Origin: Candidatus Xenobia bacterium
Lineage (GTDB): Bacteria; Vulcanimicrobiota; Xenobia; Xenobiales; QWHO01
Direction: 5' to 3'
DNA: 64,000 nucleotides
Assembly (NCBI GenBank): GCA_045863235.1
Contig: BTUM01000019.1
Location: 18,691-82,690, forward strand
Below, piece by piece: positions 8,592-56,407 of this stretch. The notes under the pieces are model-generated. The model saw only the letters and a list, made by a program, of their open reading frames with translations. It did no database searches and was not told where the DNA came from. Numbering within the stretch: the stretch's first letter is position 1; every line of letters begins with the position of its first letter. The position numbers were made by a program, and so were the translations under genes.

Positions 8592-10523
8592 TTACTCCAC
8601 CATCGTGATCGAAGTCGCGCCGGGGCCCAACGGGATCCGGCGGTCCACCGTCTCGCGGGTGGCGCTGACGACGACCACCTCGCCCTGCTCGGTAACGGCC
8701 CAGATCTCGTCTCCCTGCAGGGTGGCGGCCGTCAGCTTGCCCCCTACGGTGACCGCTTTTGACAGGCTCAGCTCGACCGGGGAGAGGGGACCGAGAGTGC
8801 CGCTCTCGTTGACCACCCAGATCTTCTGGCCGTCAGGAGGAACGAGAATGGCGAACGGGCGCGTTCCACCCGTGTCGCGGCCCGTCCTGAGCGCCTCGGC
8901 GCAATTTGGCAGGCGGTAGCTCTGAACGTGACCATCCACGGGCAGAGCCACCAGCAGATTGGACTTGTTGGCCGAGAGCGCCAGCGCTCCGGCACCGGCC
9001 AGGGGAACCTTGAGCAATTCCTTGACCACCGGATAAGGCTCCACGCAGACCAGCTCGTTCCCCGTGAGGCTGGAGAGGTAGAGCTTCCGGCCGCTGAGGT
9101 CCGTGCCGCCCTCGAGAGAAGGAGAGGCACCCGGATCGGGCACGGGAGCATCCAGAGCCATCCCCTGGGCGTCCCTGCCCAGGGCCACCAGGCCAACCAT
9201 GGCGTCCTTGCGCTTGAGCGGGCCGTCCTTTTGCTCGGGCAGAGCTTTAGGATCGAGCGAGACGATGGACACCTGGCCCATCTCGGAGTTCAACAGATAG
9301 AGCAGTTGGCCCGAGGGGTCCATGAGCAAGCGCCGGCAACCCGGGTCGATCTTCAATTCGCCCACGATGCGGTTGCTGCGCGTGTTGATCAGCTTGAGGA
9401 AGCCATTCTCTGTGGAGGCAAAGAGCTTCTTCCCGTCCGGGCTGGAGACCACGGCAAGAAACTTGTCCTGCTCGAGAGGGATACGGGTCAAGACGGTCTT
9501 GTCGGCCCGATTGACCACATAAATGGCGTTACCGCAAGCCACGTAGGCGGCAGCTCCTTGCCTGGCAAGGATGGGGGGGTTGAGCAACTGGTTGGAATAC
9601 CATAGCAAGGCGAGCAGGCCCACCACTTCCAGGGCCACCAGGTAGACCGGCTGCTTGAGAAAGGCCCACAATAGATTCTGCCAGGCGCGCGTATAGCTGT
9701 AGCTCCAGCGGGCGAAACGGGCCAGACCAAAGTTGATTCTGCGGACCTCCACCTTCTCTTGCACGGGAGGGTGGAGCACGTCGTTAAGGTTCTTTTTGAG
9801 CTCTTCGAAGGAGAAATAGAGCCCCTTGTCCTCGGCCGACAGACAACGGTTGATGACCTTGGCGAGCTCGGGGCTGACCGGGTCGGACTGCGAGCAACCA
9901 AAGGGACCGGGCTCCTTGCGGGCCAGAAAGAAAAACACTGTCTCCCCGAACTTGCGGATGTCACTTGCGATGACCGAGGCCTGAGCGGAGAACTCGGGCG
10001 CGTCCTCGTCGCCCAGGAAGCGGTCGAGACCGTAGTTGATCAGCTTGAGCTTGCCTTCCGAGTCGACCATGATGTTGGACGGATCGAGGGCGTCGAAGAT
10101 GAACGGTTTGGGGCGATTGTGCAGGTAGTGCAGCGCGTCGCACAGAGCGATGCCCCACTCGAGCACCTGGGGCTCGGGCTGGCCCTTCACGCTCATCTCG
10201 AGCAGGGTCTTCATGGTGATGCCATCGACCCGCTCGAGCACCACATACTGACGGCGCCCTTCGGAGAAATGGTCGAACATCTTGGTCAGGCCTGGATGAT
10301 CGAACTCGCGCAACACCTCCATGGCCTCTTGCAGCTGCCGGGTGCGCTCGGTCACCTGCTCCTCGCTCAAGGAGGGGTGCGGGATCATCTCTTTGAGAGC
10401 GAATTTCTGATCGTCGGAGGTGCGCTTGGCCACATAGACGCCCCCCTTCTCGCCGAAGGTAAGGGTCTTGACGACCACGTAGCGGCCTTCCGCGAGCTCC
10501 TGGCCAGGGAGTAGCTCTTTCAT
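8592..10523 (-). CDS. Ser/Thr protein kinase-like pseudokinase fused to TM segment and C-terminal beta-propeller
   Basis: 643 aa. Kinase fold with Gly loop and FALKE lysine. Catalytic loop reads FDALDPSNIMV where HRDLKPxN is expected. The DFG motif is replaced by NYG. A TM segment (LVALEVVGLLALLWY) is followed by YVTN/PQQ-like propeller repeats. Confidence 0.75.
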   Translation of the reverse strand: MKELLPGQELAEGRYVVVKTLTFGEKGGVYVAKRTSDDQKFALKEMIPHPSLSEEQVTERTRQLQEAMEVLREFDHPGLTKMFDHFSEGRRQYVVLERVDGITMKTLLEMSVKGQPEPQVLEWGIALCDALHYLHNRPKPFIFDALDPSNIMVDSEGKLKLINYGLDRFLGDEDAPEFSAQASVIASDIRKFGETVFFFLARKEPGPFGCSQSDPVSPELAKVINRCLSAEDKGLYFSFEELKKNLNDVLHPPVQEKVEVRRINFGLARFARWSYSYTRAWQNLLWAFLKQPVYLVALEVVGLLALLWYSNQLLNPPILARQGAAAYVACGNAIYVVNRADKTVLTRIPLEQDKFLAVVSSPDGKKLFASTENGFLKLINTRSNRIVGELKIDPGCRRLLMDPSGQLLYLLNSEMGQVSIVSLDPKALPEQKDGPLKRKDAMVGLVALGRDAQGMALDAPVPDPGASPSLEGGTDLSGRKLYLSSLTGNELVCVEPYPVVKELLKVPLAGAGALALSANKSNLLVALPVDGHVQSYRLPNCAEALRTGRDTGGTRPFAILVPPDGQKIWVVNESGTLGPLSPVELSLSKAVTVGGKLTAATLQGDEIWAVTEQGEVVVVSATRETVDRRIPLGPGATSITMVE

Positions 10524-10656
10524 ACCAGGGGAATGTTCTCAATCTCTCATGCCGGATCCTGCCCGTCAAAATGGCTTAAAAACTCGCATAACGGCCCCAG
10601 CTCTTGAATCGGGCTCAAAGCGGGAAACTCCGCCGAGGGTCCGAACTCCGCCCGCC

Positions 10657-20374: not shown

Positions 20375-21200
20375 CGGTCGGGTCCTCCTTCAGTACTTTG
20401 CCCACCAACTCGACATGCAAGCGGTGGCCGGCCTTGACCGCCACCACCCGGGCCATCAGATCGCATCCAAGCAGTGCCAGATCCCCCACCAGGTCAAGAC
20501 ACTTGTGACGCACGGGCTCGTCGGGAAAACGAAGCTCTGAGGTGTAGCCGTCGGAACGGATCACCAGAGCGTTGGACAGATCTCCCCCCCTGGCCAGACC
20601 CCTCTCGAGCAGGGCCTCGACCTCCTCCATGAAGCCATAGGTGCGAGCCGCAGCCAATCCTGAGAGGAAGCTCTCCGGGGTAGGCGTGTGATGAACCTGC
20701 TGGTAGGTGATCATCGGATGCTGATAATGCAGCGAATACTCCAGCCGCGCCTCGGCCGCAGGCAGAGCCAGCACCAGGGCGTTCTCGTCGCCCACCCAGA
20801 GAGGTCGCGTCAGCACGTGCCGGCAGGCGGGCCGCTCCTGGCCAACGACGCCGACGGCCAGAAAGGCCTCCGCGAACGGCAGAGCAGAGCCGTCCAGAAT
20901 GGGCACCTCAGGGCCCTCGATCAAGATGCGGAGGTTGTCGAGTCGAAGACCCGCGCAGGCGGCCAGCAAATGCTCGACGGTGCTGACCGAAACCCCCCCG
21001 GCCGAGAGCACGGTGCAGCGCTCGACTGAGCTCACCCGGGCGTGCAAGGCGGGGATCTCCTGACCGTGACGAACGAACACCCGACCGGAGTCGACGGGAG
21101 CCGGCAGTACTTCAACCCGGGCCAACTGGCCCAGGTGAATGCCCACCCCCTCGAAGCGCACCGGGGCAGCCAGTGTTTGCTGGGGCCTGCTCACTTCCAT
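20295..21200 (-). CDS. lpxC: UDP-3-O-acyl-N-acetylglucosamine deacetylase
   Basis: QQTLAAPVRFEGVGIHLGQ N-terminus and HxxEH-type zinc motifs (VEHLLAACAG). Start taken at the internal MEVSRPQQTL. The 3' end overlaps the fabZ start by about 70-80 nt in a different frame. Confidence 0.85.
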   Translation of the reverse strand: MEVSRPQQTLAAPVRFEGVGIHLGQLARVEVLPAPVDSGRVFVRHGQEIPALHARVSSVERCTVLSAGGVSVSTVEHLLAACAGLRLDNLRILIEGPEVPILDGSALPFAEAFLAVGVVGQERPACRHVLTRPLWVGDENALVLALPAAEARLEYSLHYQHPMITYQQVHHTPTPESFLSGLAAARTYGFMEEVEALLERGLARGGDLSNALVIRSDGYTSELRFPDEPVRHKCLDLVGDLALLGCDLMARVVAVKAGHRLHVELVGKVLKEDPTDVGDERNQEEVAPPLPMPALGSGSGA

Positions 21201-24879: not shown

Positions 24880-26304
24880 CTAGGGCGATTCGGGCCTGGC
24901 CTTGGTCTTGATAGCGACCATCGCGTAGTCAGTCAGATCGACACAGCCACGATTCTCAACGTAGGTGCCGATCACAATGTCGATCTTCTGCTTCTTGGCC
25001 ACTTCGCCGATGTCGCCCTTGAGGTCCGCCACCATCTTGTCGAAAAGCTCGTTACGCTGTGTCTGGAGCTTGTCACGCTGCTCCTCGAGCACCTTGATCT
25101 TCTCCCTGGTGGCTGCCGAGAGTCCCTCTCGGGCATTGGCCTGCACGGCCTTCTTCAGCTCTTCTTGCTGCTTCTCAATGCGGGCCTTCAGCTCTTCCGA
25201 CTTTGTCTTGAGCCGGGCCACGGCCACACCCTGCTCGGCTTCCATCTTCTGGCGAGCGGCAGCCGCTTCGGCCTCCATCTTGGAGCGCAGCTCATCTTGC
25301 TTCTTGGCGATCATCGCCTTGATCTCCGGTGTCAAGGTGGGCTGCTTGGGGCGAGGGGCCGGGGGAGGGGCCCCCGCGCTGGCAGGCAGAGCCCCGATCT
25401 GGCCCTCGACCTCGCGATTGACTTTGTCGATGGCGGCTTTGGTTTCGGCCGCCTGGCGGGCCTCGGAATCGGCCCGGAAGGTCTTGAAGCTGCCCTCGAG
25501 CTCGGCACGCTTGGCGTCCTTGAGCCGCTCTTCCTCGTCCGAGATGGCCTCGAGCTGGGCCTGCAGGTCGGCCTGCTCGGCCTCGTCCTTGGCCACCTGA
25601 ACTTTCAGCTGAAGGTTCAGCTTCTCTTGCTGATGGGTCTTCATGATCTCGTCTTCGTACGCGGCGATCTCCGAGTCGATGCGGGCTCGCTCGGCCTCGC
25701 GCTGCTCGCGGTGCACTTTCTCGACCTCGAGCTTGATGGCTTGAACCTTGCGCTCGCGCAGGAGCAAGAGGTTCTTGCGCTGCTCGCCGAGAGGCGCCGG
25801 CATGTTGACTGGCTCGGCCGGCGCGGCCGCTTCAGGAGCGTTCTTCTTGATGTAGGCTTCGAGCTCTTTCTGCATCTCGGCCGAGCCCTTGGCTGCCTCA
25901 GCATCGAGCCGGGCCTTCATCTGATCGGAGAGCCCTGCCATCTCGGCCGCGATGGCCGCCTGCTCGGCCTCCATCTCGGACTGCGCTCTCATGAGCTCTT
26001 TCTTGTACTTCTCCTGGGCGGCTCTCAGAATGTCATCGCGGTCCTGCATAGGCGCGAACTCGATCTCTTGCTTGAGCCCGGCCAGTTGCTCGTCGAGTTG
26101 GGTCAAGCGCTCGTAGTCAGGATGAGCCTTGAGCAGGTTGGAATAGTCCACCACGCCCAGCGTGCCGCCCAGGGCCTCACGGACCGCAGCCTGCTGATCT
26201 TGAGCCCCCACCGGAGTCGCCAGAAAGGCGCCCGAGGCCAGGACCGAAACCAGCGCCAATCCACTCCCCCAGCGCAACCATGCGGATCGCAAAGTGTTGT
26301 GCAT
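24880..26304 (-). CDS. Extended coiled-coil OmpH/Skp-like protein
   Basis: 474 aa. Signal peptide. OmpH-like N-terminus (LGVVDYSNLLKAHPDY) and C-terminus (IDIVIGTYVENRG). The roughly 350-aa middle is Glu/Ala/Lys/Gln-rich coiled coil. Confidence 0.6.
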   Translation of the reverse strand: MHNTLRSAWLRWGSGLALVSVLASGAFLATPVGAQDQQAAVREALGGTLGVVDYSNLLKAHPDYERLTQLDEQLAGLKQEIEFAPMQDRDDILRAAQEKYKKELMRAQSEMEAEQAAIAAEMAGLSDQMKARLDAEAAKGSAEMQKELEAYIKKNAPEAAAPAEPVNMPAPLGEQRKNLLLLRERKVQAIKLEVEKVHREQREAERARIDSEIAAYEDEIMKTHQQEKLNLQLKVQVAKDEAEQADLQAQLEAISDEEERLKDAKRAELEGSFKTFRADSEARQAAETKAAIDKVNREVEGQIGALPASAGAPPPAPRPKQPTLTPEIKAMIAKKQDELRSKMEAEAAAARQKMEAEQGVAVARLKTKSEELKARIEKQQEELKKAVQANAREGLSAATREKIKVLEEQRDKLQTQRNELFDKMVADLKGDIGEVAKKQKIDIVIGTYVENRGCVDLTDYAMVAIKTKARPESP

Positions 26305-33520: not shown

Positions 33521-34288
33521 ATGATGCTCTTGGAAAATAAGCGGGGTCTCGTTTTTGGCGTGGCCAACAACATGTCGATCGCCTGGGCCATCGCGCAAGA
33601 AGCCCACCGTCAGGGTGCTGAACTCGGTTTTACCTACCTCAACGAAGCGCTCGAGAAACGCATGCGCCCCCTGGCCGAGAGCCTGGAAGCGAGCCTGATC
33701 CTTCCCTGCGATGCCAACAAGGACGAAGACCTCGACGCGGTGTTTGCGGAGGCGGGCCGCAAATGGGGCAAGCTCGACTTCGTCTTGCACGCCATCGCTT
33801 TCGCCCAGCGCGAGGACCTCGACGGGCGTTTCGTGGATACCTCGCGTGAGGGGTTCCGCATAGCCCTGGACACTTCCGCCTATTCACTGGTCGCCATGGC
33901 CCGCCGAGCCGCTCCCCTGATGACCGAGGGAGGCAGCCTGCTTACTCTGACTTATTACGGGTCCCAGAAGGTGGTGGCCAACTACAATGTGATGGGGGTA
34001 GCCAAGGCCGCCCTGGAAGCCAGCGTTCGCTATCTGGCGGCCGATCTCGGGCCTCAGGGCATCCGTGTCAACGCTGTCTCGGCCGGAGCCATCAAGACTC
34101 TTTCCGCCAAGGGAATCCGCAACTTCAACGAGATGCTGAAGGTTTCAGCCGAGCGCAGCCCCCTGGGCCGTAATGTCGCTGTGGACGAAGTGGGCAAGGC
34201 TGGCACCTTCCTGCTCTCCGACTATGCCAGCGGCATCACGGGCGATATCCTGTATGTCGATGCCGGGTGGCACGTCCTGGGGATGTAG
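33521..34288 (+). CDS. fabI: Enoyl-[acyl-carrier-protein] reductase (NADH)
   Basis: GVANNMSIAW..., the SDR fold, and the Y..K catalytic region characteristic of FabI. Confidence 0.9.
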   Translation: MMLLENKRGLVFGVANNMSIAWAIAQEAHRQGAELGFTYLNEALEKRMRPLAESLEASLILPCDANKDEDLDAVFAEAGRKWGKLDFVLHAIAFAQREDLDGRFVDTSREGFRIALDTSAYSLVAMARRAAPLMTEGGSLLTLTYYGSQKVVANYNVMGVAKAALEASVRYLAADLGPQGIRVNAVSAGAIKTLSAKGIRNFNEMLKVSAERSPLGRNVAVDEVGKAGTFLLSDYASGITGDILYVDAGWHVLGM

Positions 34289-34293
34289 ACTCC

Positions 34294-34959
34294 ATGGAGC
34301 CGACTCCGCCGCCGCCCGAGAACGAGCCACCTCGCAGACAGGACCCGCGTACCACGGCAGTTCCGATGCGCGAGTTCAAGCGCACCAAGCGCTCCACTAC
34401 CCTGGCTGACCTGTGGATCCCCCTGGTAGCCCTCGGACTGGCGGCCACCATTTTCTACCTGCAATTCCAGCGCAAACTGATCGCTGACGTGCTGGCGGTG
34501 AACGATACCAGGTCCAAATTGACCCTGCAACTCAACCTCGAACGTCTGCCGCTCGAGCCCGGCGAGTCCGGAAAAATGCGGGTCTTCCACGTCGGGGGCG
34601 AGTCGCTGGAGGTGCTCAGCGGGGGAGGCACCACGGAGTCCATCTATCTGCCCAACACCAGTCCCGCCTGGGTGATCTACAATGTGGGAGGTGTAGCCAA
34701 CCTCTTGCTGGTGGACTACACCTGGGCCTATCGAGCCGATGGTGAGCGCAACACGGCTGGCCCCCAGTTCAAGGTGGTGGCCAACCTGAAGGCAAACAAG
34801 CTGTTTACCTGCGGGGCAGCCGAGGTGCTCGGCCCCGACGAGAAGCTGCCCCAACGCTATCAGGGCAAGCGCCCGCTGCTCAAGGTCGAGCGCGTCCCCA
34901 CCTCGGCCCTGGAGTTTCCCGAAACCTATCTGCGCGAGCAGTTGGAGAAGATCCGATGA
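34294..34959 (+). CDS. Hypothetical membrane-anchored protein
   Basis: Pro-rich N-terminus and a single TM helix (LWIPLVALGLAATIFYL). No recognisable family. Tightly packed between fabI and pta. Confidence 0.45.
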   Translation: MEPTPPPPENEPPRRQDPRTTAVPMREFKRTKRSTTLADLWIPLVALGLAATIFYLQFQRKLIADVLAVNDTRSKLTLQLNLERLPLEPGESGKMRVFHVGGESLEVLSGGGTTESIYLPNTSPAWVIYNVGGVANLLLVDYTWAYRADGERNTAGPQFKVVANLKANKLFTCGAAEVLGPDEKLPQRYQGKRPLLKVERVPTSALEFPETYLREQLEKIR

Positions 34960-45263: not shown

Positions 45264-45416
45264 ACCTTCCCCTCGGGAGAGCTTTCACGGGGCAGGTGGC
45301 CCTGACCCGCTCTCCATTATAGCACAGGTGTCATCCGGCAGGAGAAGCACCGGTTGAAAAGAACTCGTGGCAGATTTTTTCGCCCTTTTCGTGTATGCCT
45401 CAAGGAGAATGATACG

Positions 45417-46712
45417 TTGAAAACCTGGAATGTCCTCATCCAGCTGGCTTTGATCGCAGCCTTTTGCGCTCTCTGCTTCTGGTGGCTCTACGATGCACCC
45501 AACCACCGGCTGCGCCTGAAGCTCGGTCTGGACCTGCGCTCGGGCTCGCACATCGCCGTGCAGCTCATCCCCACGCCCGATGACCAGGGGAATATCATTC
45601 CCATCAACGAGCTGGTGCGCCAACAGACCATCCAGGTGTTCGAACGACGGCTCAATCCCGATGGCACGCTGGAGATCTTGATCACCCCCGAGGGCGTCGA
45701 CCGCCTGATCATCGAGATTCCCGAGATGACCGACAGCCAGAAGGCTGAGCAAATGGTCCAAAAGGTGGCCAAGCTCGAGTTCAGGCGCCGGGTGCCCAAC
45801 ATCGCCAAGGGCATCGTGGAGTGGAAAACCGTCATGGACGGCAAGTACATCAAGCGAGCCATGCCCGAGAGCAACATGGGCGGGGGCTGGGTGGTGGCCT
45901 TCGAGCTGACCGACAAGGGAGCCGACATCTTCGGCAACATCACCGCCGAGATGGTGGGCCAGCCGCTGGGCATCTTCTTCGACGGCCAACCGGTGGGCCC
46001 GGGGGCCACCGAGGCCGAGAAGCTCGAGCGCCAGCCCATCGTGCAGGAAGCCATCCGGGGGGGTCGCGGCCAGATCAGCGGCAGCTTCTCCGTGGAGCAG
46101 GCCCAGGAGCTGGCAACCTACCTCAACTCGGGCACGCTGCCTGTAAACGTCAAAGTACTCAGCTCCTTCACGGTCAGCCCTACCCTGGGCAAGGAATCGC
46201 TGGACTCGAGCGTCATGGCTTTCGGCGGCGGTCTGGGCATCATCGTGCTCTACATGATCTTGTATTATCGCTTGCCAGGCATCTGCGCCAGTATCGCGCT
46301 GGTGGCCTACGCGCTCATCGTGCTTGCCTCCATGAACATACCCGGCATGGAGTTCGTTCTCACGCTGCCCGGCATCGCAGGCTTCATCCTGTCCATCGGC
46401 ATCGCGGTGGATGCCAACGTGCTGCAGTTCGAGCGCCTCAAGGAGGAGCTGTGGCACGACAAGTCGGTGGGAACGGCCACCGACGTCGGCTTTGCCAGGG
46501 CCTGGTCGTCCATCCTGGACGGCCACGTCACCACCTTCATCGGCGCCTTCATCCTGTATGCCTTTGGTACCGCGACGGTCAAAGGCTTTGGAGCCACACT
46601 GATGATCGGAACGGTATGGAGCCTGATCACCGCCGTCTACATCACCCGCATGCTTCTCGAGTTCTTCATTTACGTCGCCAACGTCAAGAATCGCTGGCTT
46701 TACGGAGCCTAG
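45417..46712 (+). CDS. secD: Protein translocase subunit SecD
   Basis: N-terminal TM, periplasmic domain, and a C-terminal 5-TM SecD/SecF core (GLGIIVLYMILYYRLPG...). TTG start at 45417 preceded by AAGGAG. Confidence 0.85.
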   Translation: MKTWNVLIQLALIAAFCALCFWWLYDAPNHRLRLKLGLDLRSGSHIAVQLIPTPDDQGNIIPINELVRQQTIQVFERRLNPDGTLEILITPEGVDRLIIEIPEMTDSQKAEQMVQKVAKLEFRRRVPNIAKGIVEWKTVMDGKYIKRAMPESNMGGGWVVAFELTDKGADIFGNITAEMVGQPLGIFFDGQPVGPGATEAEKLERQPIVQEAIRGGRGQISGSFSVEQAQELATYLNSGTLPVNVKVLSSFTVSPTLGKESLDSSVMAFGGGLGIIVLYMILYYRLPGICASIALVAYALIVLASMNIPGMEFVLTLPGIAGFILSIGIAVDANVLQFERLKEELWHDKSVGTATDVGFARAWSSILDGHVTTFIGAFILYAFGTATVKGFGATLMIGTVWSLITAVYITRMLLEFFIYVANVKNRWLYGA

Positions 46713-46722
46713 GAGCTAAGTC

Positions 46723-47910
46723 ATGGATACCACCAAGATGATCGAAGTCGCCCTTTGGGCGATCATTCTGACGGCCATCGTCACCTGGGGCCAGTCGTTC
46801 CGCAAGAAGACGCGCGACCTGATGGGGAATCGACGCTACTTCTACTATGTCAGCGCCACTCTGGTAGTGGTCGGGCTGGGAGGAATCCTCATCCGGGGCG
46901 TGCAGCTCGGACTTGACTTCACCGGGGGCACGCTGGTCGAGCTCTCCTCGCCCCAGATGCTCACCGTCAACCAGGTGCGCGAAGCGATGGCTGACCCCCG
47001 GGTTGACGGCCAGAGCCCGGGCAGCGTGCCCATCGCCGACCTCCAGGTGCAGGTATCGGCCAGTCTCATCCCGGGCCTGGGCAAGGACGGCCAGCCAGCC
47101 CAGAAGATCATCTTGCGCATGAAGCGCCAGGGCAACGAAGAGCCAGCCCTGAGCGCAGATCAGACCCAGATGGTGGTCACCGTTCTGGGCGAGAAGCTCC
47201 AGACGACCTTGTTGCGCGAGGAGCGCATCGGGTCTACCATCACCGGCGAGCTGCAGATGAACGCCATCATGGCCCTCGTGATCACGCTCGGGCTCCAGCT
47301 CATCTACATTTATTTCCGGTTCGGGGGCCAGATGCGTTTCGGCCTGGCCGCCGACATCGCCCTGGTCCATGATGTGGTAATCATGCTGGGCATCTACGCC
47401 CTGGCCGGACGTCAGGTTGACTCGCCCTTCATCGCCGCTTTGCTGACCGTAACCGGCTATTCGGTGATGGATTCTGTGGTCATCTTCGACCGCATTCGCG
47501 AGAATCTCCGCATCACCAAGAACGCCACCTTTGACGAAGTGGTCAACCTTTCGGTGAACCAGACCATGACTCGCTCCATCAACACCACGCTGACGCCCAT
47601 CCTGACCCTGCTGGCCATCTACTTCTTCGGGGGCTCCACCCTGCAGAACTTCGCCTTCGCGCTGCTGGTGGGGATCTTCGCAGGCGCCTATTCGTCCATC
47701 TGCCTGGCCTCGCCCCTGCTGATCGAGATCGACCACTACGCCACCCGCAAGGAGAAGGAGCGGCTGGCGATGCGGCGCGAGCTGGCCGAGCAGAAGGCGG
47801 GCGAGCGCAAAAAGCGTGAGGTCACAGTGCGGCCCGAGGAGCTGGATCCCGTCGAGCAAGCCATGCAGGGTGCGGCCAGCGGCAAAAGACGGGGGCGACG
47901 TCGCCGCTGA
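46723..47910 (+). CDS. secF: Protein translocase subunit SecF
   Basis: GLDFTGGT motif and 6 TM helices. The C-terminal basic tail is unusual. Confidence 0.85.
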   Translation: MDTTKMIEVALWAIILTAIVTWGQSFRKKTRDLMGNRRYFYYVSATLVVVGLGGILIRGVQLGLDFTGGTLVELSSPQMLTVNQVREAMADPRVDGQSPGSVPIADLQVQVSASLIPGLGKDGQPAQKIILRMKRQGNEEPALSADQTQMVVTVLGEKLQTTLLREERIGSTITGELQMNAIMALVITLGLQLIYIYFRFGGQMRFGLAADIALVHDVVIMLGIYALAGRQVDSPFIAALLTVTGYSVMDSVVIFDRIRENLRITKNATFDEVVNLSVNQTMTRSINTTLTPILTLLAIYFFGGSTLQNFAFALLVGIFAGAYSSICLASPLLIEIDHYATRKEKERLAMRRELAEQKAGERKKREVTVRPEELDPVEQAMQGAASGKRRGRRRR

Positions 47911-47912
47911 GC

Positions 47913-49049
47913 TTGATCCCCGAGCGCGTCCCTCATCCGGTCGATCGAATGAAGATCCTGGCCAGGATGATCCACATCACCTCGCATCTGAGCGACCTGG
48001 AATCCCTGCAGGAAATCCTGATGGACCACTTGCTGGAGCTGGTGGGAGCAGAGCGGGGCTTCCTGATGCTGGTCGACCCCGAAAGCGGCGCGCTGGAATT
48101 CTGCACGGCTCGCAACTTCTCTAAGGAAAGCCTGTTCGAGTCTGAGTTTCAGGTAAGCCGTAGCATCATTTTCGAGACCTTCCGCAGCCGAGAGGCCGTG
48201 CTGACCTCCAATGCCCAGGATGATGAGCGTTTCCAGAGCGCGATCAGTGTCCAGGAGCTCGGCTTGCGGGCGGTCATGTGCGTACCGGTGGTCGTGCAAG
48301 ACGAGGCCATCGGAGTGCTCTACGTCGACAACCGCTTGCGGCTGGGAGCCTTCGAGACAGAGGACCTCGAATTCATGAAGACCTTTGCCGATCAAGCCGG
48401 GGCCAGCATCCACCGAACCCGCCTGACCCGGGAACGAAACCGACTGGCCCAGCTGTTCAGTCGCTATGTCAGCCCCGAGGTGGTTGGCGAGTTACTGGCC
48501 CGCCCGCACGACGCGCTCAGCGCCCAGCGGCGCCGGGTCACGGTGATGTTCGTGGATCTGCGCGGCTTCTCGGCCCTCTCCGAGCAGCTTCCCCCGGCCG
48601 AGCTCCTGGACATGCTCAATGAATACTACGAGGGCATGCTCGAGGTACTGTTCGCTCACCGGGGCACCATTCTGTCCTTCCTGGGCGACGGCTTGCTGGC
48701 CGTCTTCGGGGCTCCGTTGGCCATGGAGCAACAGGAGTTGAGGGCCATTCAGTGCGCCAGGAATCTGATTCAATGGGGAGAAACCAGACAGGGGCTGAAG
48801 TTTGGGGTGGGTATGGCCACCGGCGAGGCGGTCGTAGGGGATCTGGGGGGCTCTCAGAGAAGAGACTACACGGTCGTGGGCGACCCGGTGAACACCGCCG
48901 CCCGACTCGAAAAACTCACCAAGAGCAAGGGGGTTGCGGTGCTGGTGGATGAGGAGACCTACCGCTCCAGCGGCCTGACGGGAGGAACCAACCTGGGGGC
49001 AGAGCTTCTGGCTGGCAAGTCCAATCCGGTCTCCCTCTGGGCCGTGTGA
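47913..49049 (+). CDS. GAF domain-containing class III adenylate/guanylate cyclase
   Basis: N-terminal GAF domain. CHD domain with RRVTVMFVDLRGFSAL..GDGLLAVFGAP... Starts 3 nt after the secF stop. Confidence 0.8.
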   Translation: MIPERVPHPVDRMKILARMIHITSHLSDLESLQEILMDHLLELVGAERGFLMLVDPESGALEFCTARNFSKESLFESEFQVSRSIIFETFRSREAVLTSNAQDDERFQSAISVQELGLRAVMCVPVVVQDEAIGVLYVDNRLRLGAFETEDLEFMKTFADQAGASIHRTRLTRERNRLAQLFSRYVSPEVVGELLARPHDALSAQRRRVTVMFVDLRGFSALSEQLPPAELLDMLNEYYEGMLEVLFAHRGTILSFLGDGLLAVFGAPLAMEQQELRAIQCARNLIQWGETRQGLKFGVGMATGEAVVGDLGGSQRRDYTVVGDPVNTAARLEKLTKSKGVAVLVDEETYRSSGLTGGTNLGAELLAGKSNPVSLWAV

Positions 49050-50338
49050 AACGCGGCCTGGTCGTGCTGGCTTTGACCGCTCTGCAGGCCTGTGGCCCTC
49101 CTCCCCCGGACCCGGCCCTGCACATGGCTCCCGACACCCCTCTGAGCGAATCGGCCTACGTCGCCTCCGATCGGGGCGGCCAGCTCTGGTTCCGACTCTA
49201 CCGGCGAGGTGACCCCTCGGACGAGCCCTTTCGCCCCAGCGGCGTGAGCGCCCCTGGCCGCATCCGAATTCCAGAAGGACACCTGGTAGATCTGGAGGTG
49301 CGCGGTCGCATCGGTCCCTTCCAGCTGTTCCGCGCCACCCAGGGCCGCGTCCAACCAGAGTCACACGTTTCCCTGGTCAGTGTGGTGGAGCTCGATTGGA
49401 ATCGCATCCTGGCCCTGGGACTGGTCAGCCTGGCCGGCCTCTCGGGAGCGCTCTGGCTGATCCTCGCCAGCCGCCTGCGCCACCGGGAGAATCAGGCACT
49501 GGAGCTCGAGGTCGAGCGCAACCAGGCTGAAGAACGGGCTCGGCGGGCCGAGTCGCGCACCGGTGGTGATCCCATTCGGCTGGGGCCGTACCGCATCCTG
49601 GAACGGCTCGGCCAGGGCGGGCACGCGGTGGTCTACCTGGTCGAAGACGAGTATGGCGACCGCTTCGCACTGAAAATTCCCAGCCAGCCCTCCCAGCGCT
49701 TCCAGCGAGAATGCGAAATCTTGCGGGAGCTGCGCCACCCGGGCATTGTGCGCTTGCACAGCTTCTCGGTCGCAAGCCAGGACGAACCGGCCTACATGGT
49801 GCTCGAACCGGTCGAAGGGGAGAGCCTGCTCGAGCGACTCGAGCGGCCCATGGCCCCTGAGGAAGCGGTGCGCATCGCGCGCGAGCTGCTGCAGGCGCTC
49901 GAATATGCTCATCAGGCCGGGGTCGTTCATCGCGACGTCTCGGCCGGCAACGTGCTCTTGACCGCTCAGGGAGTGCGCCTGCTCGACTTCGGGCTGGCCC
50001 GCCAGGATCTGCAGGTCACCCTGACGGCCCCCGACCAGACCCTGGGAACCCCTGCCTACGCCGCCCCGGAGCAGATCGACAGCCACACCGTCGACGCCCG
50101 GGCCGACCTTTTTGCGGTGGGCGTGTTGCTCTATCAGATGCTGACCGGGCGGCTACCCTGGCAAGAGCGCGACGCCGTCAAGCTGTTCCTGGCCAAGAGC
50201 AGCACGCCGCCGCCTCCTCCCAACCAGCTCAACCCGATGATTTCACGGTCGTTGAGCGAGCTCGTCATGGACCTGTTGCGGGCTGACCCCGCGGATCGAC
50301 CCGAATCGGCCGGGGCCGTGCTGAGGCGGCTGAGCTGA
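49046..50338 (+). CDS. Membrane Ser/Thr protein kinase with N-terminal extracytoplasmic domain
   Basis: Signal-like N-terminus, an extracytoplasmic region of about 100 aa, and a TM helix. Cytoplasmic Hanks kinase with FALKIP, HRDVSAGN, DFGLAR and APE motifs. 4-nt overlap with the cyclase gene. Confidence 0.8.
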   Translation: MKRGLVVLALTALQACGPPPPDPALHMAPDTPLSESAYVASDRGGQLWFRLYRRGDPSDEPFRPSGVSAPGRIRIPEGHLVDLEVRGRIGPFQLFRATQGRVQPESHVSLVSVVELDWNRILALGLVSLAGLSGALWLILASRLRHRENQALELEVERNQAEERARRAESRTGGDPIRLGPYRILERLGQGGHAVVYLVEDEYGDRFALKIPSQPSQRFQRECEILRELRHPGIVRLHSFSVASQDEPAYMVLEPVEGESLLERLERPMAPEEAVRIARELLQALEYAHQAGVVHRDVSAGNVLLTAQGVRLLDFGLARQDLQVTLTAPDQTLGTPAYAAPEQIDSHTVDARADLFAVGVLLYQMLTGRLPWQERDAVKLFLAKSSTPPPPPNQLNPMISRSLSELVMDLLRADPADRPESAGAVLRRLS

Positions 50339-51555
50339 TGGCAACTTTCCGCTACCGGGCTTCGGGCGCAGGGGGAGCGTTGAAGGAGGGGGTGCTGGAG
50401 GCAACCAGCAAACAGGATGCTTCCCGCTCCCTGCTGCAACGGGGCCTGATGGTCCTCGAGCTGAAAGAGGAGCGTGCTGCCGCTCCTCGCCAGCTGGTGG
50501 CCCCACCGGTCCCCCGGGCGATCGTCGCCCCGCCCCCTCGACTGACCCGGCTCTCGGCCATGGAAGCCGCGGTGCTGTTTCGCCAGCTGGCGGTCATGTT
50601 CCAGGCCGGCCTCTCGCTCTTTCGGGCAGTCACCTGCCTGGCCCAGCAGGCTGAGCGGCCCCGCCGGCGCCAGGCACTGGAGCTGCTGGCCGCCCGCCTG
50701 GCCGAGGGCTCCTCGCTGAGCCAGGCCATGGAGCTCTCCGGGCTCTTTTCGCAACTTGAGATCGGGGTGATGAAGGCGGGGGAGGAGTCGGGTATGCTCA
50801 GCGTCCTGCTCGAGCGACTGGCCCGGCTTCAAGAGCTGGAGTTGGCCTTTCAGCAACAGGTGAAGGCCCGCCTCAGCTACCCGGTTGGCGTGGCCGCAGC
50901 CATGGTGGTGGCCGCCTCGCTACTGACCATCTTGATGGGCCGAGTCGTCGCCTCCATGGGGAGCCTGGCCGAGGCCAGCCCCTTTCTGAGGTTGATCCAA
51001 CAACCCTGGCTGCCGGCCCTCATGCTGCTCGTCCCGCTAGCTCTGGGCTGGTTGGCCTGGTGGGGTTGGAGGGGCTCCTCCACCCGGGCCAGCATGGAGC
51101 GCGTCTTGCTGAGGTTTGCCGTGGTCGGGCCCCTGCTGCGCCGGGCCGAGTCAGCCCGCATCTGCCGTATTCTGGCCGTGCTGGCTTCCAGCGGACTGCG
51201 GGTGGATCGCAGTCTGAGCCTGGCCGCCGGCACGACCGGGAGCCCCCTGGCACGCGAGGCCCTCGAGGTCGCTCGCCGCCATCTGGTGGCGGGTGAAGGG
51301 CTGGCCGCCGCTCTGGCGGCAAGCGGCTATTTTCCGCGCGAGGTGATCCAGATGACCGCGGCCGGCGAGAGTTCCGGGCGGCTGGGGCCGATGCTCTCCA
51401 AAGTGGCCGAATATGCCGACCTTCAGGTTACCCAGTTCCTGGAGGCTGCGGTTACGGCCCTGGAGCCGCTGCTACTGAGCGTGCTCGGCTTTCTGGTCGG
51501 ACTTACCATGCTGGCCATCTTCGGGCCCCTTTACGGAGCTCTGGGCAGACTTTGA
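50338..51555 (+). CDS. Type II secretion system F (GspF/PilC/TadB-like) platform family membrane protein
   Basis: Two T2SS-F repeats (..AVLFRQLAVMFQAGLSL.. and ..CRILAVLASSGLRV..) with flanking TM helices. TGATG stop/start overlap with the kinase gene. Confidence 0.75.
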   Translation: MATFRYRASGAGGALKEGVLEATSKQDASRSLLQRGLMVLELKEERAAAPRQLVAPPVPRAIVAPPPRLTRLSAMEAAVLFRQLAVMFQAGLSLFRAVTCLAQQAERPRRRQALELLAARLAEGSSLSQAMELSGLFSQLEIGVMKAGEESGMLSVLLERLARLQELELAFQQQVKARLSYPVGVAAAMVVAASLLTILMGRVVASMGSLAEASPFLRLIQQPWLPALMLLVPLALGWLAWWGWRGSSTRASMERVLLRFAVVGPLLRRAESARICRILAVLASSGLRVDRSLSLAAGTTGSPLAREALEVARRHLVAGEGLAAALAASGYFPREVIQMTAAGESSGRLGPMLSKVAEYADLQVTQFLEAAVTALEPLLLSVLGFLVGLTMLAIFGPLYGALGRL

Positions 51556-52089
51556 CAGGCTCTGCTTGAGGCGAGCCGGCATGGGGTCGATGGGGTCGAG
51601 CTTCATCGCCGCATCGAACTGCTCGATCGCCTTCTCAGGCTGCTCCAGACGCACGTACACCAACCCCAGCGTGGTCCGAAACTGACTGATTCCAGGGTGG
51701 ACCCGACAGGCTTCCTGGAGCACCTCGATCGCCCTGTCGGGCTGCTTGCTCAGAAGGTAGCAGTGGGCCAGCAGGTCCCAGGCGGCCAGATAGTCGGGGC
51801 ACAGGTGGATGACCTGCTCCAGATGCTCGATCGCTTCCGGGAGGTGCCGATGATGCACCTCGTCCTCGGCCTGGGCATACAGGCTACGCGCCCGGTCAAA
51901 ATCGCGCCACTGGGCCTGCGCCCGGAGACTCATCGCCAGCGCGATCGGCAGGAGAAGGCAAAAGATCCCGATACTCAGGGCGCGTCGCCGCGACCCGGCT
52001 GGTGCTACTCGCATTCTGACAAGATTCGCCGCACCCGAGCCCCGGCCTCTCATGGAATGAGCCTTCCGTGCTGAAGCCTTCCGGGACAA
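51472..52089 (-). CDS. TPR repeat protein (membrane-anchored)
   Basis: TM helix followed by TPR-like repeats. Its 5' end overlaps the 3' end of the convergent GspF-like gene, so the true start is probably internal. Confidence 0.5.
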   Translation of the reverse strand: MSRKASARKAHSMRGRGSGAANLVRMRVAPAGSRRRALSIGIFCLLLPIALAMSLRAQAQWRDFDRARSLYAQAEDEVHHRHLPEAIEHLEQVIHLCPDYLAAWDLLAHCYLLSKQPDRAIEVLQEACRVHPGISQFRTTLGLVYVRLEQPEKAIEQFDAAMKLDPIDPMPARLKQSLSKSAQSSVKGPEDGQHGKSDQKAEHAQ

Positions 52090-52886: not shown

Positions 52887-53945
52887 TCACGGAGTCCAGT
52901 CGTCTTGCTTCTTCACCGACTGGCAGAAGGCTGCCAGCAAACGCACGCAATTGTCGAGGTCGTCAAGCTCGAGCATCTCGCAAGGATTGTGCATGTAGCG
53001 CAAGGGGATAGAGAGCAGTCCGGCTGCGACTCCTGCCCTGGAAAGCTGAATGACGTTGGCGTCGGTTCCGGTACCCCGAGGATTGGCCTCGACCTGATAG
53101 GGAATCTTGCCCGCCTCGGCCACCTCGACCAGACGCTGGAAAACGTGAGGATTGACGTTGGGGCCCCGAGCGATGACCGGGCCCTTTCCCATCTGGATGT
53201 CTCCGTGGCGCTTCTTGTCCGAGTCAGGCAGGTCGGTGGCATGGCAGACATCAATGGCGATTCCGATGGTGGGATTGATCCCGTAGGCGGCCGTCTGGGC
53301 CCCGCGTAACCCGATTTCTTCCTGCACCGCCGAGACTCCGTGCACCGATGCCGCCAGCTTCTTGCCCTTGAGCGAGCGCAAAGTCTCGGCCACGACATAG
53401 AGACCGCAGCGGTTGTCGAAGGCTTTGGAAGCAGCTCGACCATTGCGCAACAAGGTGAGACTGGCATCCATCGTAACCGGGTCGCCCAACTTGACCAGCT
53501 CGCGTGCCTCGTCACCGGAAGTGGCCCCGATGTCCACCCACATCTTGTGCAACTCGGACTTCTTCTTGCGCTCTTCCTCGTCCATGAGGTGGATGGCGCG
53601 CTTACCGAAAACGCCGGGTATGGAGCCCGAGGCGGTGTGCACCAGCGCCCGCTGAGCCACGATCACCTCGGCGTCCCAGCCCCCCGAGGCCACCACGAAG
53701 AGGTAGCCCTTGTCGTCGATGTACTTGACCAGAAAGCCGATCTCATCGGAGTGACCGTCGAGCATGATGCGGGGATTGCCCTTGGGGTTGGCGACAGCGA
53801 TCACCGAGCCCATCAGGTCGGTGCGCATCTCCCCCACCTGGCCCTCCAGGCGAGCACGAAAAACTTTCTGAACAGCCTGCTCATAGCCGGGCGTGCCGTG
53901 CGACTCAACGAGCTGTTGAAGGAACTCCAGGGCGCCCTTCTTCAT
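52887..53945 (-). CDS. M42 family metallopeptidase (FrvX/glutamyl aminopeptidase-like)
   Basis: GTPGYE ... MLDGHSDEIGF ... motifs. 352 aa. Confidence 0.85.
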   Translation of the reverse strand: MKKGALEFLQQLVESHGTPGYEQAVQKVFRARLEGQVGEMRTDLMGSVIAVANPKGNPRIMLDGHSDEIGFLVKYIDDKGYLFVVASGGWDAEVIVAQRALVHTASGSIPGVFGKRAIHLMDEEERKKKSELHKMWVDIGATSGDEARELVKLGDPVTMDASLTLLRNGRAASKAFDNRCGLYVVAETLRSLKGKKLAASVHGVSAVQEEIGLRGAQTAAYGINPTIGIAIDVCHATDLPDSDKKRHGDIQMGKGPVIARGPNVNPHVFQRLVEVAEAGKIPYQVEANPRGTGTDANVIQLSRAGVAAGLLSIPLRYMHNPCEMLELDDLDNCVRLLAAFCQSVKKQDDWTP

Positions 53946-56407
53946 CGCTGGATGGTCAAGAACAGCTCGCTCATCTCAGCCGAGGGCGAGATGTTCAACT
54001 CGTTCTTCATGATCTGGGCGCAGCTTTGATACTGGCGGGCGGCCTGCTCGGGCTTGCCCTGCTCCACGAAAGCCCGCATCAGGCAAAGGTGCGCTTCCTG
54101 GTGACAGTTGTCGATCTTGAGCAGGCGCTGGGCGTAATCGTTGCTGACCTCGTAGCGCTCTTTCTCGAAGAAGTAGGTCATCAGGCTCTCGAGCACCTCG
54201 GTATACTTCATCTCCAGCTCTTCGCGGAGCAAGATGGACCAATCAGCGTAGTAGCCTTCCATGAACTCACCCTGATAGAGGCCTTCAGCCTTCTGGAAGG
54301 CGATGATGGACTCGTCATCGCGCCCCTCGCGCTCGCGGGCCTGACCAAGCTCGTACTGTCGCTCGAACTCGGCCACGTCGAAGAACCAGGAACGGTCCAC
54401 ATTGAATCGATAGAAGCCTTTGCGGGCAAGCACCACGCGGTCGGACTCCCCGGTGAAGACTGCTTCCAACGCCTTGCGCATGTGCGAAAGAGCGGCGTAA
54501 AGAGATTGGCGGGCCTTCTCGGGCGGGTGATCGGGCCAGAACAGGTCCATGATCTTCTCGTCTGGGATGTCTCGGCCCGAATGCACCGCCAAATAAGCGA
54601 ACAGGTACTTCGACTTGCGGGTCTTCCAGAGCTTGTCGCCCACCTCCTGGCCGCCCGCGAAGACGCGGAACTTGCCAAAACCATACAGCGAAAGGGGCGG
54701 AGCCTGCACCGCACCGGCCACACCTTCCTTGGGGGACAAAAGCTCCATCACCCGCTCGCGAGTGTTCGCCTGGACGTCGGCCAGGAATGGCTGGACAGCA
54801 TCAAAGCCCAGTGATTGCAGCATGCGGTCGACCGCTGGCGACTCCTGGGCGGCAAATTCGAGCAGCAGCGGAATGGCCAGGTGACGCTGCTGACGCAGCG
54901 ACTGCTGGAGCCCGTACTTCTCGACGGTCTCGGCAGCCAGGTCGACCTGCGCCCTGGCCTCAGCGGCCTGATTGTTCTTGTGCAGCACCTTGCCACGATA
55001 AAGAGCGGTGGAGGCCAGCTCAGGCTGGTGCTCCCACACGGTGAAGATCTCGCGAGCCCTGTCGAGGTCTTCCAGAGCCGGCGCAACTTCTCCCTGTACG
55101 CCCCGGACCAGGCCTCGGACAGCCTGGGCCTTGCCGGTGCGCAGCTGGCTCTGACCGATGGCGGCCTCCACGGCCTGATCGGCGTAGCCGCGCGCGTCGT
55201 CCACGCGACCGCGGTGCAGGTGAGAAAGCGCCAGGCCGACCAGCGCCTCGGAGCGCAAACCGCCCGCCGCCTCCGGCAGCAGCTCCAAAGCGCCCGAATA
55301 GGCTTTCCCCGATATTTCAAGGTCGCCAGCCGACAGGTAGGTGCCTGCCAGGCCCAGCATCAGCTCCACCTGCCGCTCCTTGGAGAGGGCCTCCTCGCGA
55401 ACTTCCTCGTCGTCCTCGGCCGTTTCGTCGGTGGCCTCTTCGTCGGCAGCCAGCATCTTGAGGAACTGATTGACCAGGTCCGGGTCGAAGTGGGTGCCAG
55501 CCTCCTTCTCCAGGATCTGGCGAGCGTCGTGGTGGCTCAAAGGCTCGCGGTGAGGGCGCGCGCTGATCATGGCATCGTAAGCCTCAGCCACGCAAAGAAT
55601 GCGCGATTCCAGAGGAATTTGGGTACCCTTCAGGCCCTGCGGGTGTCCCGAGCCATCGAACCATTCATGGTGGTGCAGCACGATCCGGAACACTTCTCGC
55701 AGACTCCCCAGACTGCTGAACAAAGTCTGGGATTGCTGGCTGGAGGCCTCCTGCAGTTGCTGCTTTTCGCCCTCGTCGAGCATCTCTTCGGTCTTGTCCA
55801 GGAAGGCTTTTTTCTGGCCGATGGTGCCCACGTCATGCAAGAAGGCAGCCAACTCGAGCACCTCGAGCCGGTTGCGGGAAAGCCCGGCCGCCTTGCCGAT
55901 CTTCAGAGAGCTCTCGGCCACGCGGCGCGAGTGACCGCTGAAGTGCTCGTCGCGCTCCTCCACGCCCTCGGCCAGCAGTTTGACGATGGCCGCAAAATCG
56001 CGCCACTGCTGCTCGAGACCCTGAGAGAAACTCTTCTGCAGCCGATAGGACTCCAGGCTGCGCTTGACGCTCTGCACGAACTGCTTGTCGTCAAAGGGCT
56101 TCATCAAATAGTCGTCCACGCCCATCTTGATGGCGCGAATGGGCACGTCGGGACTGGCGTAGCCGGTGATCACGATGGAGCGGGTATCGGGCTGGTCGCG
56201 TTTGAGGTTGGAGATCGTCTCCAGACCGTCCATTTCGGCCATGCGGACGTCACACACCACCAGGTCGAAGGATGTCTCCTTCGCCTTCTGAATGGCGTCC
56301 AGCCCCGAAGACGCGGTGGTTACATCGTAACCCTCGTCCGTAAGCAGAATCTCCAAGGCTGCAAGCATCAAGGGGTCGTCTTCGACCACCAGGATCTTCT
56401 CCGGCAC
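53942..56407 (-). CDS. Multidomain response regulator: REC + HD-GYP + TPR + C-terminal SARP (OmpR-type wHTH + BTAD)
   Basis: REC domain with phospho-acceptor (VCDVRMAEMDG). HD-GYP domain (HHHEWFDGSGHPQGL). TPR region. C-terminal FGKFRVFAGGQEV...KSKYLFAYLAVH...RVVLARKGFYRFN winged helix, then a BTAD helical domain. Confidence 0.75.
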   Translation of the reverse strand: MPEKILVVEDDPLMLAALEILLTDEGYDVTTASSGLDAIQKAKETSFDLVVCDVRMAEMDGLETISNLKRDQPDTRSIVITGYASPDVPIRAIKMGVDDYLMKPFDDKQFVQSVKRSLESYRLQKSFSQGLEQQWRDFAAIVKLLAEGVEERDEHFSGHSRRVAESSLKIGKAAGLSRNRLEVLELAAFLHDVGTIGQKKAFLDKTEEMLDEGEKQQLQEASSQQSQTLFSSLGSLREVFRIVLHHHEWFDGSGHPQGLKGTQIPLESRILCVAEAYDAMISARPHREPLSHHDARQILEKEAGTHFDPDLVNQFLKMLAADEEATDETAEDDEEVREEALSKERQVELMLGLAGTYLSAGDLEISGKAYSGALELLPEAAGGLRSEALVGLALSHLHRGRVDDARGYADQAVEAAIGQSQLRTGKAQAVRGLVRGVQGEVAPALEDLDRAREIFTVWEHQPELASTALYRGKVLHKNNQAAEARAQVDLAAETVEKYGLQQSLRQQRHLAIPLLLEFAAQESPAVDRMLQSLGFDAVQPFLADVQANTRERVMELLSPKEGVAGAVQAPPLSLYGFGKFRVFAGGQEVGDKLWKTRKSKYLFAYLAVHSGRDIPDEKIMDLFWPDHPPEKARQSLYAALSHMRKALEAVFTGESDRVVLARKGFYRFNVDRSWFFDVAEFERQYELGQAREREGRDDESIIAFQKAEGLYQGEFMEGYYADWSILLREELEMKYTEVLESLMTYFFEKERYEVSNDYAQRLLKIDNCHQEAHLCLMRAFVEQGKPEQAARQYQSCAQIMKNELNISPSAEMSELFLTIQR

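Follow-up and report, generated by a model that had tools for sequence, protein, structure and literature searches.

The platform proteins of type IV pili and of the type II secretion system (T2SS) are some of the most poorly understood components of their machines, and we know of no direct partner of a platform protein outside the machine. A 64 kb stretch of contig BTUM01000019.1 (the window, i.e. the whole stretch that was analysed), from the uncultured soil/wastewater bacterium Candidatus Xenobia of the phylum Vulcanimicrobiota/Eremiobacterota, raises the question of why a gene for a platform protein is part of an operon of secretion and signalling genes. On the + strand, five genes follow each other head to tail, i.e. 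secD, secF, a gene for a GAF plus class III nucleotide cyclase protein (GAF-cyclase), a gene for a membrane Hanks-type kinase, and a gene for a full-length PilC/GspF-family (T2SSF) protein. We find that the conserved core of this module is the pair of GAF-cyclase and PilC-like protein, the genes of which are usually translationally coupled, and this finding is robust. Our preferred reading, to which we give a probability of roughly 0.45, is that the operon has two halves, SecDF and a signalling cassette, and that the protein pair of the cassette would carry out cyclic nucleoside monophosphate (cNMP) signalling at the platform of a type IV filament.

Conservation of the cyclase-T2SSF gene pair

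The five genes are closely packed. As read from the sequence, secD (45417..46712, +) and secF (46723..47910, +) are separated by a 10 nt spacer, and the cyclase gene (47913..49049, +) follows the TGA stop codon of secF after 2 nt; moreover, the cyclase gene and the kinase gene (49046..50338, +) overlap by 4 nt (GTGA), and the kinase gene and the T2SSF gene (50338..51555, +) overlap by 1 nt (TGATG). An earlier note, made from the sequence, had described five co-directional genes with spacers or overlaps of 0-4 nt; the gene order and the other junctions stand, while the secD-secF spacer is wider. Relative to an 85-96 % identical relative, the ratio of nonsynonymous to synonymous substitution rates (dN/dS) is 0.044 for secD, 0.050 for secF, 0.047 for the cyclase gene, 0.092 for the kinase gene and 0.105 for the T2SSF gene. 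Because these values are low, we conclude that all five genes are functional and under purifying selection, with the T2SSF and kinase genes evolving about twice as fast as the other three. Overlaps of start and stop codons are ordinary in operons; the part of the layout that is not due to chance is the adjacency of the cyclase and T2SSF genes, which is kept across lineages.

Among the five gene products, the cyclase shows the highest conservation, and we therefore used it as the anchor of a homolog search for deeper loci and then read the neighbourhoods of its orthologs; a homolog search with a clade profile missed even the deep members of that clade. Between the window and the locus L017, for instance, the identity is 59 % for the cyclase, 53 % for SecF, 50 % for SecD and 32 % for the T2SSF protein. 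The lineage sample comprised the window, four close relatives and the loci L015, L016, L017, L018, L019, L020 and L022. The T2SSF gene adjoins the cyclase gene in every lineage of the cyclase family that was sampled (11 of 11), over a range of 44-100 % cyclase identity. All five genes are kept in the close relatives (T2SSF identity 92, 85, 68 and 66 %); this conservation says little, because the gene order of these relatives matches that of the window far outside the operon as well.

The deeper loci are rearranged around the pair. In L015 (cyclase identity 66 %), the cyclase and T2SSF genes are followed by a convergent TPR gene, a gene for a pseudokinase-AAA_16 protein and a DsbD gene, and secDF is absent from the locus. 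L016 (62 %) has secF, three RND efflux genes, and then the cyclase, kinase and T2SSF genes, while L017 (59 %) has two secD genes, secF, a small opposite-strand open reading frame (ORF), the cyclase and T2SSF genes, and a downstream block of pseudokinase-AAA_16, DsbD, aldehyde-dehydrogenase-like and CHASE2-cyclase genes. The same downstream block follows the pair in L018 (52 %), in which an opposite-strand glnA precedes the cyclase gene and secDF is absent from the locus, and in L019 (55 %), in which secD and secF are followed by a 4.4 kb gene for a 1452-amino-acid AAA_16 protein before the pair. In L022 (58 %), a Tara Oceans contig, secD, secF and two small ORFs precede the cyclase and T2SSF genes. 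Finally, in L020 (44 %), the order is swapped, i.e. a T2SSF fragment lies directly upstream of the cyclase gene. Thus, the flanks of the pair change upstream (secF, an RND pump, an AAA_16 gene, small ORFs, glnA or an aminotransferase gene) as well as downstream (a convergent TPR gene or the pseudokinase-DsbD block). The two genes themselves overlap by 1 nt in L015, are spaced by 1, 3 and 8 nt in L017, L018 and L019, respectively, and by 33 nt in L022.

The linkage to T2SSF stops short of the FHA-GAF-cyclase family, because a Desulfobacterota member of that family (35 % identity) has no T2SSF neighbour. Within the sample, the synteny check that the earlier note had called for showed that the T2SSF-cyclase linkage is kept in every lineage and that relatives never place the T2SSF gene in a pilus or T2SS operon. 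The note had named as evidence against its proposal a T2SSF protein that does not match T2SS-F profiles, or relatives in which the gene belongs to a complete pilus or T2SS operon and lacks conserved linkage to its signalling neighbours. Because the profiles match, no such operon occurs in the relatives and the linkage to the cyclase gene is conserved, neither was found.

Proteins of the signalling cassette

The T2SSF protein is a polytopic membrane protein of 405 amino acids, and the same sequence is found in the Candidatus Xenobia metagenome-assembled genome AMXMBFR33. In its AlphaFold2 model (pLDDT 82.6), an N-terminal beta-alpha domain (residues 1-45) and a Pro-rich disordered linker (47-68), which varies from about 20 to 90 amino acids among relatives, are combined with two helical cytoplasmic domains and three long membrane helices. 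Two PF00482 repeats were detected (4.2e-40, 137 bits vs a cut-off of 25.2), both GE..G.L motifs are present, and the GspF and PilC models align with the protein over its entire length. Foldseek matched the model to M. xanthus PilC, EpsF, OutF, Thermus PilC and TcpE, with TM-scores, normalised to the target, of 0.82-0.89 for the cytoplasmic domain on EpsF, OutF and Thermus PilC; the best match by sequence among solved structures was M. xanthus PilC (3jc8, 7e-54). Thus, the GspF/PilC-like identity proposed in the earlier note is confirmed by T2SS-F profiles that match over the full length. The protein shares with PilC and GspF proteins (EpsF, OutF, TcpE) the T2SSF_N domain, the two T2SSF repeats and the three membrane helices; by contrast, it falls below the equivalog cut-offs (228 vs 424 bits for GspF TIGR02120; 204 and 153 vs 700 bits for PilC NF052607 and NF052606) and belongs to a separate, fast-evolving clade. 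Cyclase-linked T2SSF proteins also differ from PilC and GspF in that their genes are never beside an ATPase, peptidase or pilin gene and always beside a GAF-cyclase gene, and in their variable Pro-rich linker. In a neighbour-joining tree without support values, they are monophyletic and apart from ordinary PilC/GspF matches. A HMMER scan of 1.84 billion representative proteins returned seven proteins at 41-68 % identity and then the continuum of ordinary PilC/GspF proteins, and when the T2SSF alignment was used to scan genome contigs and metagenome contigs, the only matches were close relatives and two ordinary pilus/T2SS loci.

The cyclase is a soluble protein of 378 amino acids in which Pfam detects a GAF domain (1.5e-19) and a Guanylate_cyc domain (1.1e-16). 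Its true start is the TTG codon at 47913, as the earlier note had it, because the N-terminal peptide MIPERVPHPxDR encoded from this position is conserved in orthologs. The ATG at 47949, chosen by the gene caller of public assemblies, is too late and excludes this peptide. Among solved structures, the guanylyl cyclase Cya2 of Synechocystis (2w01, 5e-28) and CyaB of P. aeruginosa are nearest to the catalytic domain. The catalytic residues of class III nucleotidyl cyclases, i.e. two metal-binding Asp plus the transition-state Asn and Arg, are invariant in 65 orthologs, and to judge from these residues the cyclase is very probably active. The purine-specifying position, which is Lys in adenylate cyclases and Glu in guanylate cyclases, is Ser in 64 of the 65 orthologs, and all 65 have Thr at the second specificity position. 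The Ser aligns with the Lys of CyaB, the Glu of wild-type Cya2 and the Lys of the Cya2 E488K variant, and this single change turns Cya2 from a guanylyl into an adenylyl cyclase (PMC5995499). Because the specificity position is Ser, the label of adenylate cyclase given in the earlier note is unproven. In an informal reading of the GAF domain for bilin- or cNMP-binding motifs, no conserved Cys-His or NKFDE pattern was noticed.

The kinase (430 amino acids) is of the receptor type. A signal resembling that of lipoproteins (LQAC) precedes an outside domain of about 105 amino acids that matches no Pfam family; a single transmembrane helix and a coiled stretch lead to the kinase domain (Pkinase 1.5e-46, 159 bits vs a cut-off of 31.7). 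StkP and PknB are the best solved relatives of the kinase. By motifs read from the query sequences, with a PknB sequence as guide, the Hanks-type ALK, HRD, DFG and APE motifs are retained. The catalytic loop is HRDVSAGN in the window and HRD[VIL]SA[GA]N in four of four clade members, i.e. the Lys of HRDxKxxN is replaced by Ser, whereas L016 retains HRDLKPAN. A membrane kinase of about 410-430 amino acids is encoded between the cyclase and T2SSF genes in the window clade and L016; deeper relatives instead have, downstream, a protein of about 800 amino acids with Pkinase and AAA_16 (STAND) domains. In L015 and L017-L019, we regard these Pkinase-AAA_16 neighbours as pseudokinases because HRE, HGA or HGG replaces HRD and three of them have no DFG. 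Thus, a kinase-like gene is always at most one gene away from the cyclase-T2SSF pair, but its kind and position vary, and the kinase is not the fixed module member that the earlier note had made of it.

Two further observations concern kinase genes. In L016, a 96-bp tandem repeat (10335-10776; 4.6 copies, 89 % matches) duplicates the junction of the kinase stop and the T2SSF start, and every copy holds a ribosome-binding site, an ATG and the first T2SSF codons. The window encodes a second kinase-like protein (8592-10523, - strand; 643 amino acids), the Pkinase match of which covers only profile positions 1-152 of 263; its kinase domain may be truncated or degenerate.

Proposed coupling to a filament machine and rival readings

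In the preferred reading, the PilC-like protein would be a platform-type part of a type IV filament machine (pilus or T2SS-like), with the ATPase, pilins and secretin encoded elsewhere. The cyclase would be made in a fixed ratio with the PilC-like protein and would act at it. The signal could run in either direction, i.e. the state of the filament machine might set the cyclic-nucleotide output, which would resemble surface sensing in P. aeruginosa, or the cyclic nucleotide together with the ligand of the GAF domain might set the activity of the platform. In the window clade, the receptor-type kinase encoded between the two would contribute an input from the periplasm; as it lacks the catalytic-loop Lys, it may be a weak kinase or a scaffold. 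Co-transcription with secDF would tie expression to envelope biogenesis and would be inessential to the module. Several findings favour this reading, i.e. the adjacency of the pair amid changing flanks, the strong conservation of the cyclase with its invariant catalytic residues, and the intact gene, PilC fold and monophyly of the cyclase-linked T2SSF proteins. It also fits with the outer membrane of the organism, with the type IV pili of the single isolate of the phylum (PMC9758169), and with T2SSF paralogs that directly follow pknD kinase genes and a gene for a phytochrome-like GAF protein in Ca. Eudoremicrobium taraoceanii (PMC9259500 supplement). A cyclase gene welded to a PilC-like gene across the phylum offers a concrete candidate pair for the direct coupling of filament machines to cyclic-nucleotide signalling.

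Second-messenger proteins are known to dock on pilus machines, as in PilO-SadC, FimX-PilZ-PilB and the binding of c-di-GMP (cyclic diguanylate) by MshE. In these cases, as proposed here, a nucleotide-signalling enzyme or receptor is bound directly to a type IV filament component; they differ in that they involve c-di-GMP and the ATPase or the alignment complex, and to our knowledge none of them pairs a class III cyclase with the platform protein. A literature search found no report joining a T2SSF protein with a GAF domain or a cyclase. The Pil-Chp/CyaB surface-sensing system of P. aeruginosa likewise connects a class III cyclase to a pilus platform, and its CyaB is one of the solved proteins nearest to the catalytic domain of the window cyclase; moreover, P. 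aeruginosa PilC is required for surface-induced cyclic AMP (cAMP) (bioRxiv 10.1101/2022.05.13.491915). By contrast, in P. aeruginosa the connection passes through a chemotaxis-like pathway and the genes lie apart, whereas here the genes are translationally coupled and there are no Chp-like genes. In Synechocystis, which like the Xenobia bacterium is a member of Bacillati (Terrabacteria), a cyclic nucleotide likewise governs type IV pilus behaviour, in that Cya1 and cAMP control type IV pilus motility (Cya1/Sycrp1; PMC7690835), and among solved structures Synechocystis Cya2 matches the catalytic domain best. However, Cya1 works through a CRP-type regulator on pilin genes and has no reported linkage to pilC, and Cya2 has Glu (Lys in the E488K variant) at the specificity position, at which the window cyclase family has Ser (PMC5995499).

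Several observations weigh against the preferred reading. In the window, tblastn with a PilB and a PilD gave a best E value of 0.17, two scans for prepilin motifs were empty, and Pfam scans of about 45 other ORFs returned no pilus or T2SS gene. In total, neither the 64 kb window nor the 8-10 kb flanks on either side of the related loci contain a gene for a GspE/PilB ATPase, a pilin or pseudopilin, a prepilin peptidase or a secretin near the platform gene. The filament machine is therefore assumed rather than seen. The statement in the earlier note that no GspE ATPase or pilins are nearby thus holds over the whole 64 kb; its description of the T2SSF gene as stand-alone fits the window and the flanks of the related loci and is not established for the genome. 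The phylum does have pilB-pilT-pilC and many T2SSF paralogs. V. alpinum, the only cultured member of the phylum, has type IV pili and phototaxis, and its genome has contiguous pilB, pilT and pilC genes (WPS_19010-19030) as well as a pilM/D/Q cluster and a Tad locus (PMC9758169). Because V. alpinum has this canonical pilB-pilT-pilC, the cyclase-linked T2SSF protein could be an additional paralog without a role in a pilus. Moreover, no cNMP receptor was identified in the analysis. The T2SSF protein evolves fast, PF00482 scores are lower in cyclase-linked (105-151 bits) than in ordinary PilC/GspF proteins (180-244 bits), and the best-scoring repeat is the second in cyclase-linked T2SSF proteins and the first in ordinary PilC/GspF proteins; because of this reversal, we consider the first cytoplasmic domain to be more diverged. 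The neighbour-joining tree that sets the clade apart is crude, and the taxonomy of L015-L022 was inferred from the labels of a few cluster members and from shared synteny. Finally, part of the conservation could be inherited gene order, because the arrangement NrtR-NPCBM-TPR|secD-secF...cyclase-T2SSF is syntenic in L017 and L022.

Of the alternatives, co-location survives best, although we consider it unlikely. In this case, the T2SSF protein would be the platform of a pilus or T2SS with scattered genes, and the cyclase and the kinase would be unrelated to it, sharing a transcript and an inherited gene order; the arrangement would then be no more than an operon layout peculiar to this lineage. 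In support of this alternative, synteny among L017, L022 and the window extends over the wider block from NadA/NrtR to the T2SSF gene, and the close relatives show extended collinearity. Moreover, Ser/Thr kinases are common, i.e. the window has the second one at 8592..10523, and in the available portion of the Prokka annotation table of Ca. Eudoremicrobium taraoceanii (PMC9259500 supplement) the numbering of pknD reaches at least 13. However, insertions and rearrangements occurred on both sides of the pair, whereas a kinase gene is the one insertion observed between the two genes. The pair also outlasts the loss of secDF in L015 and L018 and the swap of order in L020, and its spacing is at most 8 nt in most lineages.

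The T2SSF protein could also be an exapted platform which, without ATPase and pilins, would serve as membrane anchor, sensor or activator of the soluble cyclase, resulting in a new two-protein membrane cyclase. We rank this possibility after co-location and regard it, too, as improbable. It is favoured by the lack of an ATPase or pilin gene near the T2SSF gene in any of the 11 lineages, by the separate and fast-evolving clade with its more diverged first cytoplasmic domain, by the canonical pilBTC cluster elsewhere in the phylum, and by the tendency of the neighbouring kinases toward degeneracy. In addition, the same portion of the Ca. E. taraoceanii table lists at least seven epsF (T2SSF) paralogs, of which one lies directly after pknD_5 and rcsC_3, one after pknD_13, one after the gene for a phytochrome-like GAF protein (cph2) and two in tandem, and it lists pilB-pilT on another scaffold (PMC9259500 supplement). 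Given these epsF neighbours, the occurrence of T2SSF paralogs next to signalling genes seems to be characteristic of the phylum, and the locus points to an expansion of such paralogs in Eremiobacterota. On the other hand, the full PilC architecture is kept, i.e. the N-terminal domain, both GE..G.L motifs and the three membrane helices, and we know of no T2SSF protein that works without an ATPase. In a more specific version, which is just as doubtful, an exapted PilC/GspF protein would be the receptor or activator of a GAF-cyclase that makes an unusual cyclic nucleotide, as the Ser at the specificity position might suggest, and this arrangement would be typical of Eremiobacterota. Whichever reading applies, the locus flags a class III cyclase family with a near-invariant Ser (64/65) at this position.

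SecD and SecF are proton-driven helpers of the Sec translocon, and the T2SSF protein, the cyclase and the kinase could act physically with SecDF to couple secretion to signalling. The 2 nt junction with secF and the presence of secDF upstream in the window clade, L016, L017, L019 and L022 would fit such coupling, but we consider it very unlikely. The secF and cyclase genes are separated in four lineages, i.e. by three RND genes in L016, an opposite-strand ORF in L017, the 4.4 kb gene in L019 and two ORFs in L022, and secDF is gone from the locus in two (L015 and L018); moreover, SecD and SecF score as ordinary equivalogs. We conclude that the secDF linkage is old synteny, often retained and clearly dispensable. 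Thus, of the membrane signalling/secretion-coupling module that the earlier note had suggested, the cyclase-T2SSF linkage is kept, while the coupling to secDF is loose. A Pycsar-type anti-phage system, i.e. a pyrimidine cyclase with a membrane effector, has next to no probability, for although the cyclase matches PADLOC PycC models (best 6e-26, 89 bits) and has a non-canonical specificity residue, these matches are generic class III similarity, the T2SSF protein has neither a PADLOC match nor a Pfam cNMP-binding domain, and the pair is vertically inherited in a conserved housekeeping neighbourhood with a cyclase more conserved than SecDF, unlike in defence islands, so that this and other defence readings are rejected on the basis of the context and the lack of an effector with a cNMP-binding domain.

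SecDF, flanking genes and the wider window

Both Sec proteins pass the NCBIfam equivalog-domain cut-offs. SecD (431 amino acids; TIGR01129, 334 bits vs a cut-off of 244; Pfam SecD_1st, SecDF_P1_head and SecD_SecF_C) starts at a TTG codon with AGGAGA 8 nt upstream, and a longer ORF from 45354 is possible. SecF (395 amino acids; TIGR00966, 285 bits vs a cut-off of 160; Pfam Sec_GG and SecD_SecF_C) has a Lys/Arg-rich C-terminal tail. In L017 (3658-6331), the tandem secD pair lies before secF, and each copy is ~50 % identical to the window SecD.

The operon is delimited by a divergent TPR gene upstream and a convergent small TPR gene downstream. The divergent intergenic region 5' of secD (45264..45416, +), the sole + strand non-coding gap above 10 nt ahead of the five genes, presumably contains the operon promoter along with the ribosome-binding site AGGAGA (45403-45408). 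A pattern scan for promoters and terminators, which performed at chance level, gave no sigma-70 match on the + strand in 45264..45416 and, between the five genes, no + strand site resembling a terminator; Rfam gave no match in the window.

The small TPR gene (51472..52053, -) codes for an exported protein with TPR repeats and an N-terminal hydrophobic segment, and its convergent overlap with the 3' end of the T2SSF gene amounts to 84 nt (51472-51555). Convergent overlaps recur in L003 (84 nt), L006 and L009 (25 nt each) and L015 (50 nt), i.e. overlaps of 25-84 nt are found down to 41 % T2SSF identity. The small TPR protein may be an accessory part of the module, although its membership is uncertain.

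The downstream block of the deeper loci (L015, 7203-13272; L017, 10439-17134; L018, 6053-12706; L019, 9396-16013) consists of genes for the pseudokinase-AAA_16 protein (about 800 amino acids), DsbD, the aldehyde-dehydrogenase-like protein and a class III cyclase with a CHASE2 sensor, none of which occurs in the 64 kb window. The window also encodes, three genes downstream of the module, an 821-amino-acid protein (53942-56407, -) with receiver, HD_5 (HD-GYP-like), TPR and BTAD domains, which is an unusual architecture for a response regulator. Sizeable ORFs with coding-like GC content at third codon positions and no Pfam match at E <= 1e-5 lie, on various strands, at 12310-13467, 21191-22999, 24880-26304 and 34267-34959. 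Finally, a cluster for outer membrane biogenesis at 10549-31373 contains an lpxD-like gene, two genes for LpxB-like proteins (one a weak match), lpxA, lpxC, a hexapeptide transferase gene, three genes for OmpH/Skp-like proteins, bamA and bamB. Because lpxA/B/C/D, bamA, skp and bamB are present in the window, we conclude that the Xenobia organism is diderm with a lipopolysaccharide-containing outer membrane.

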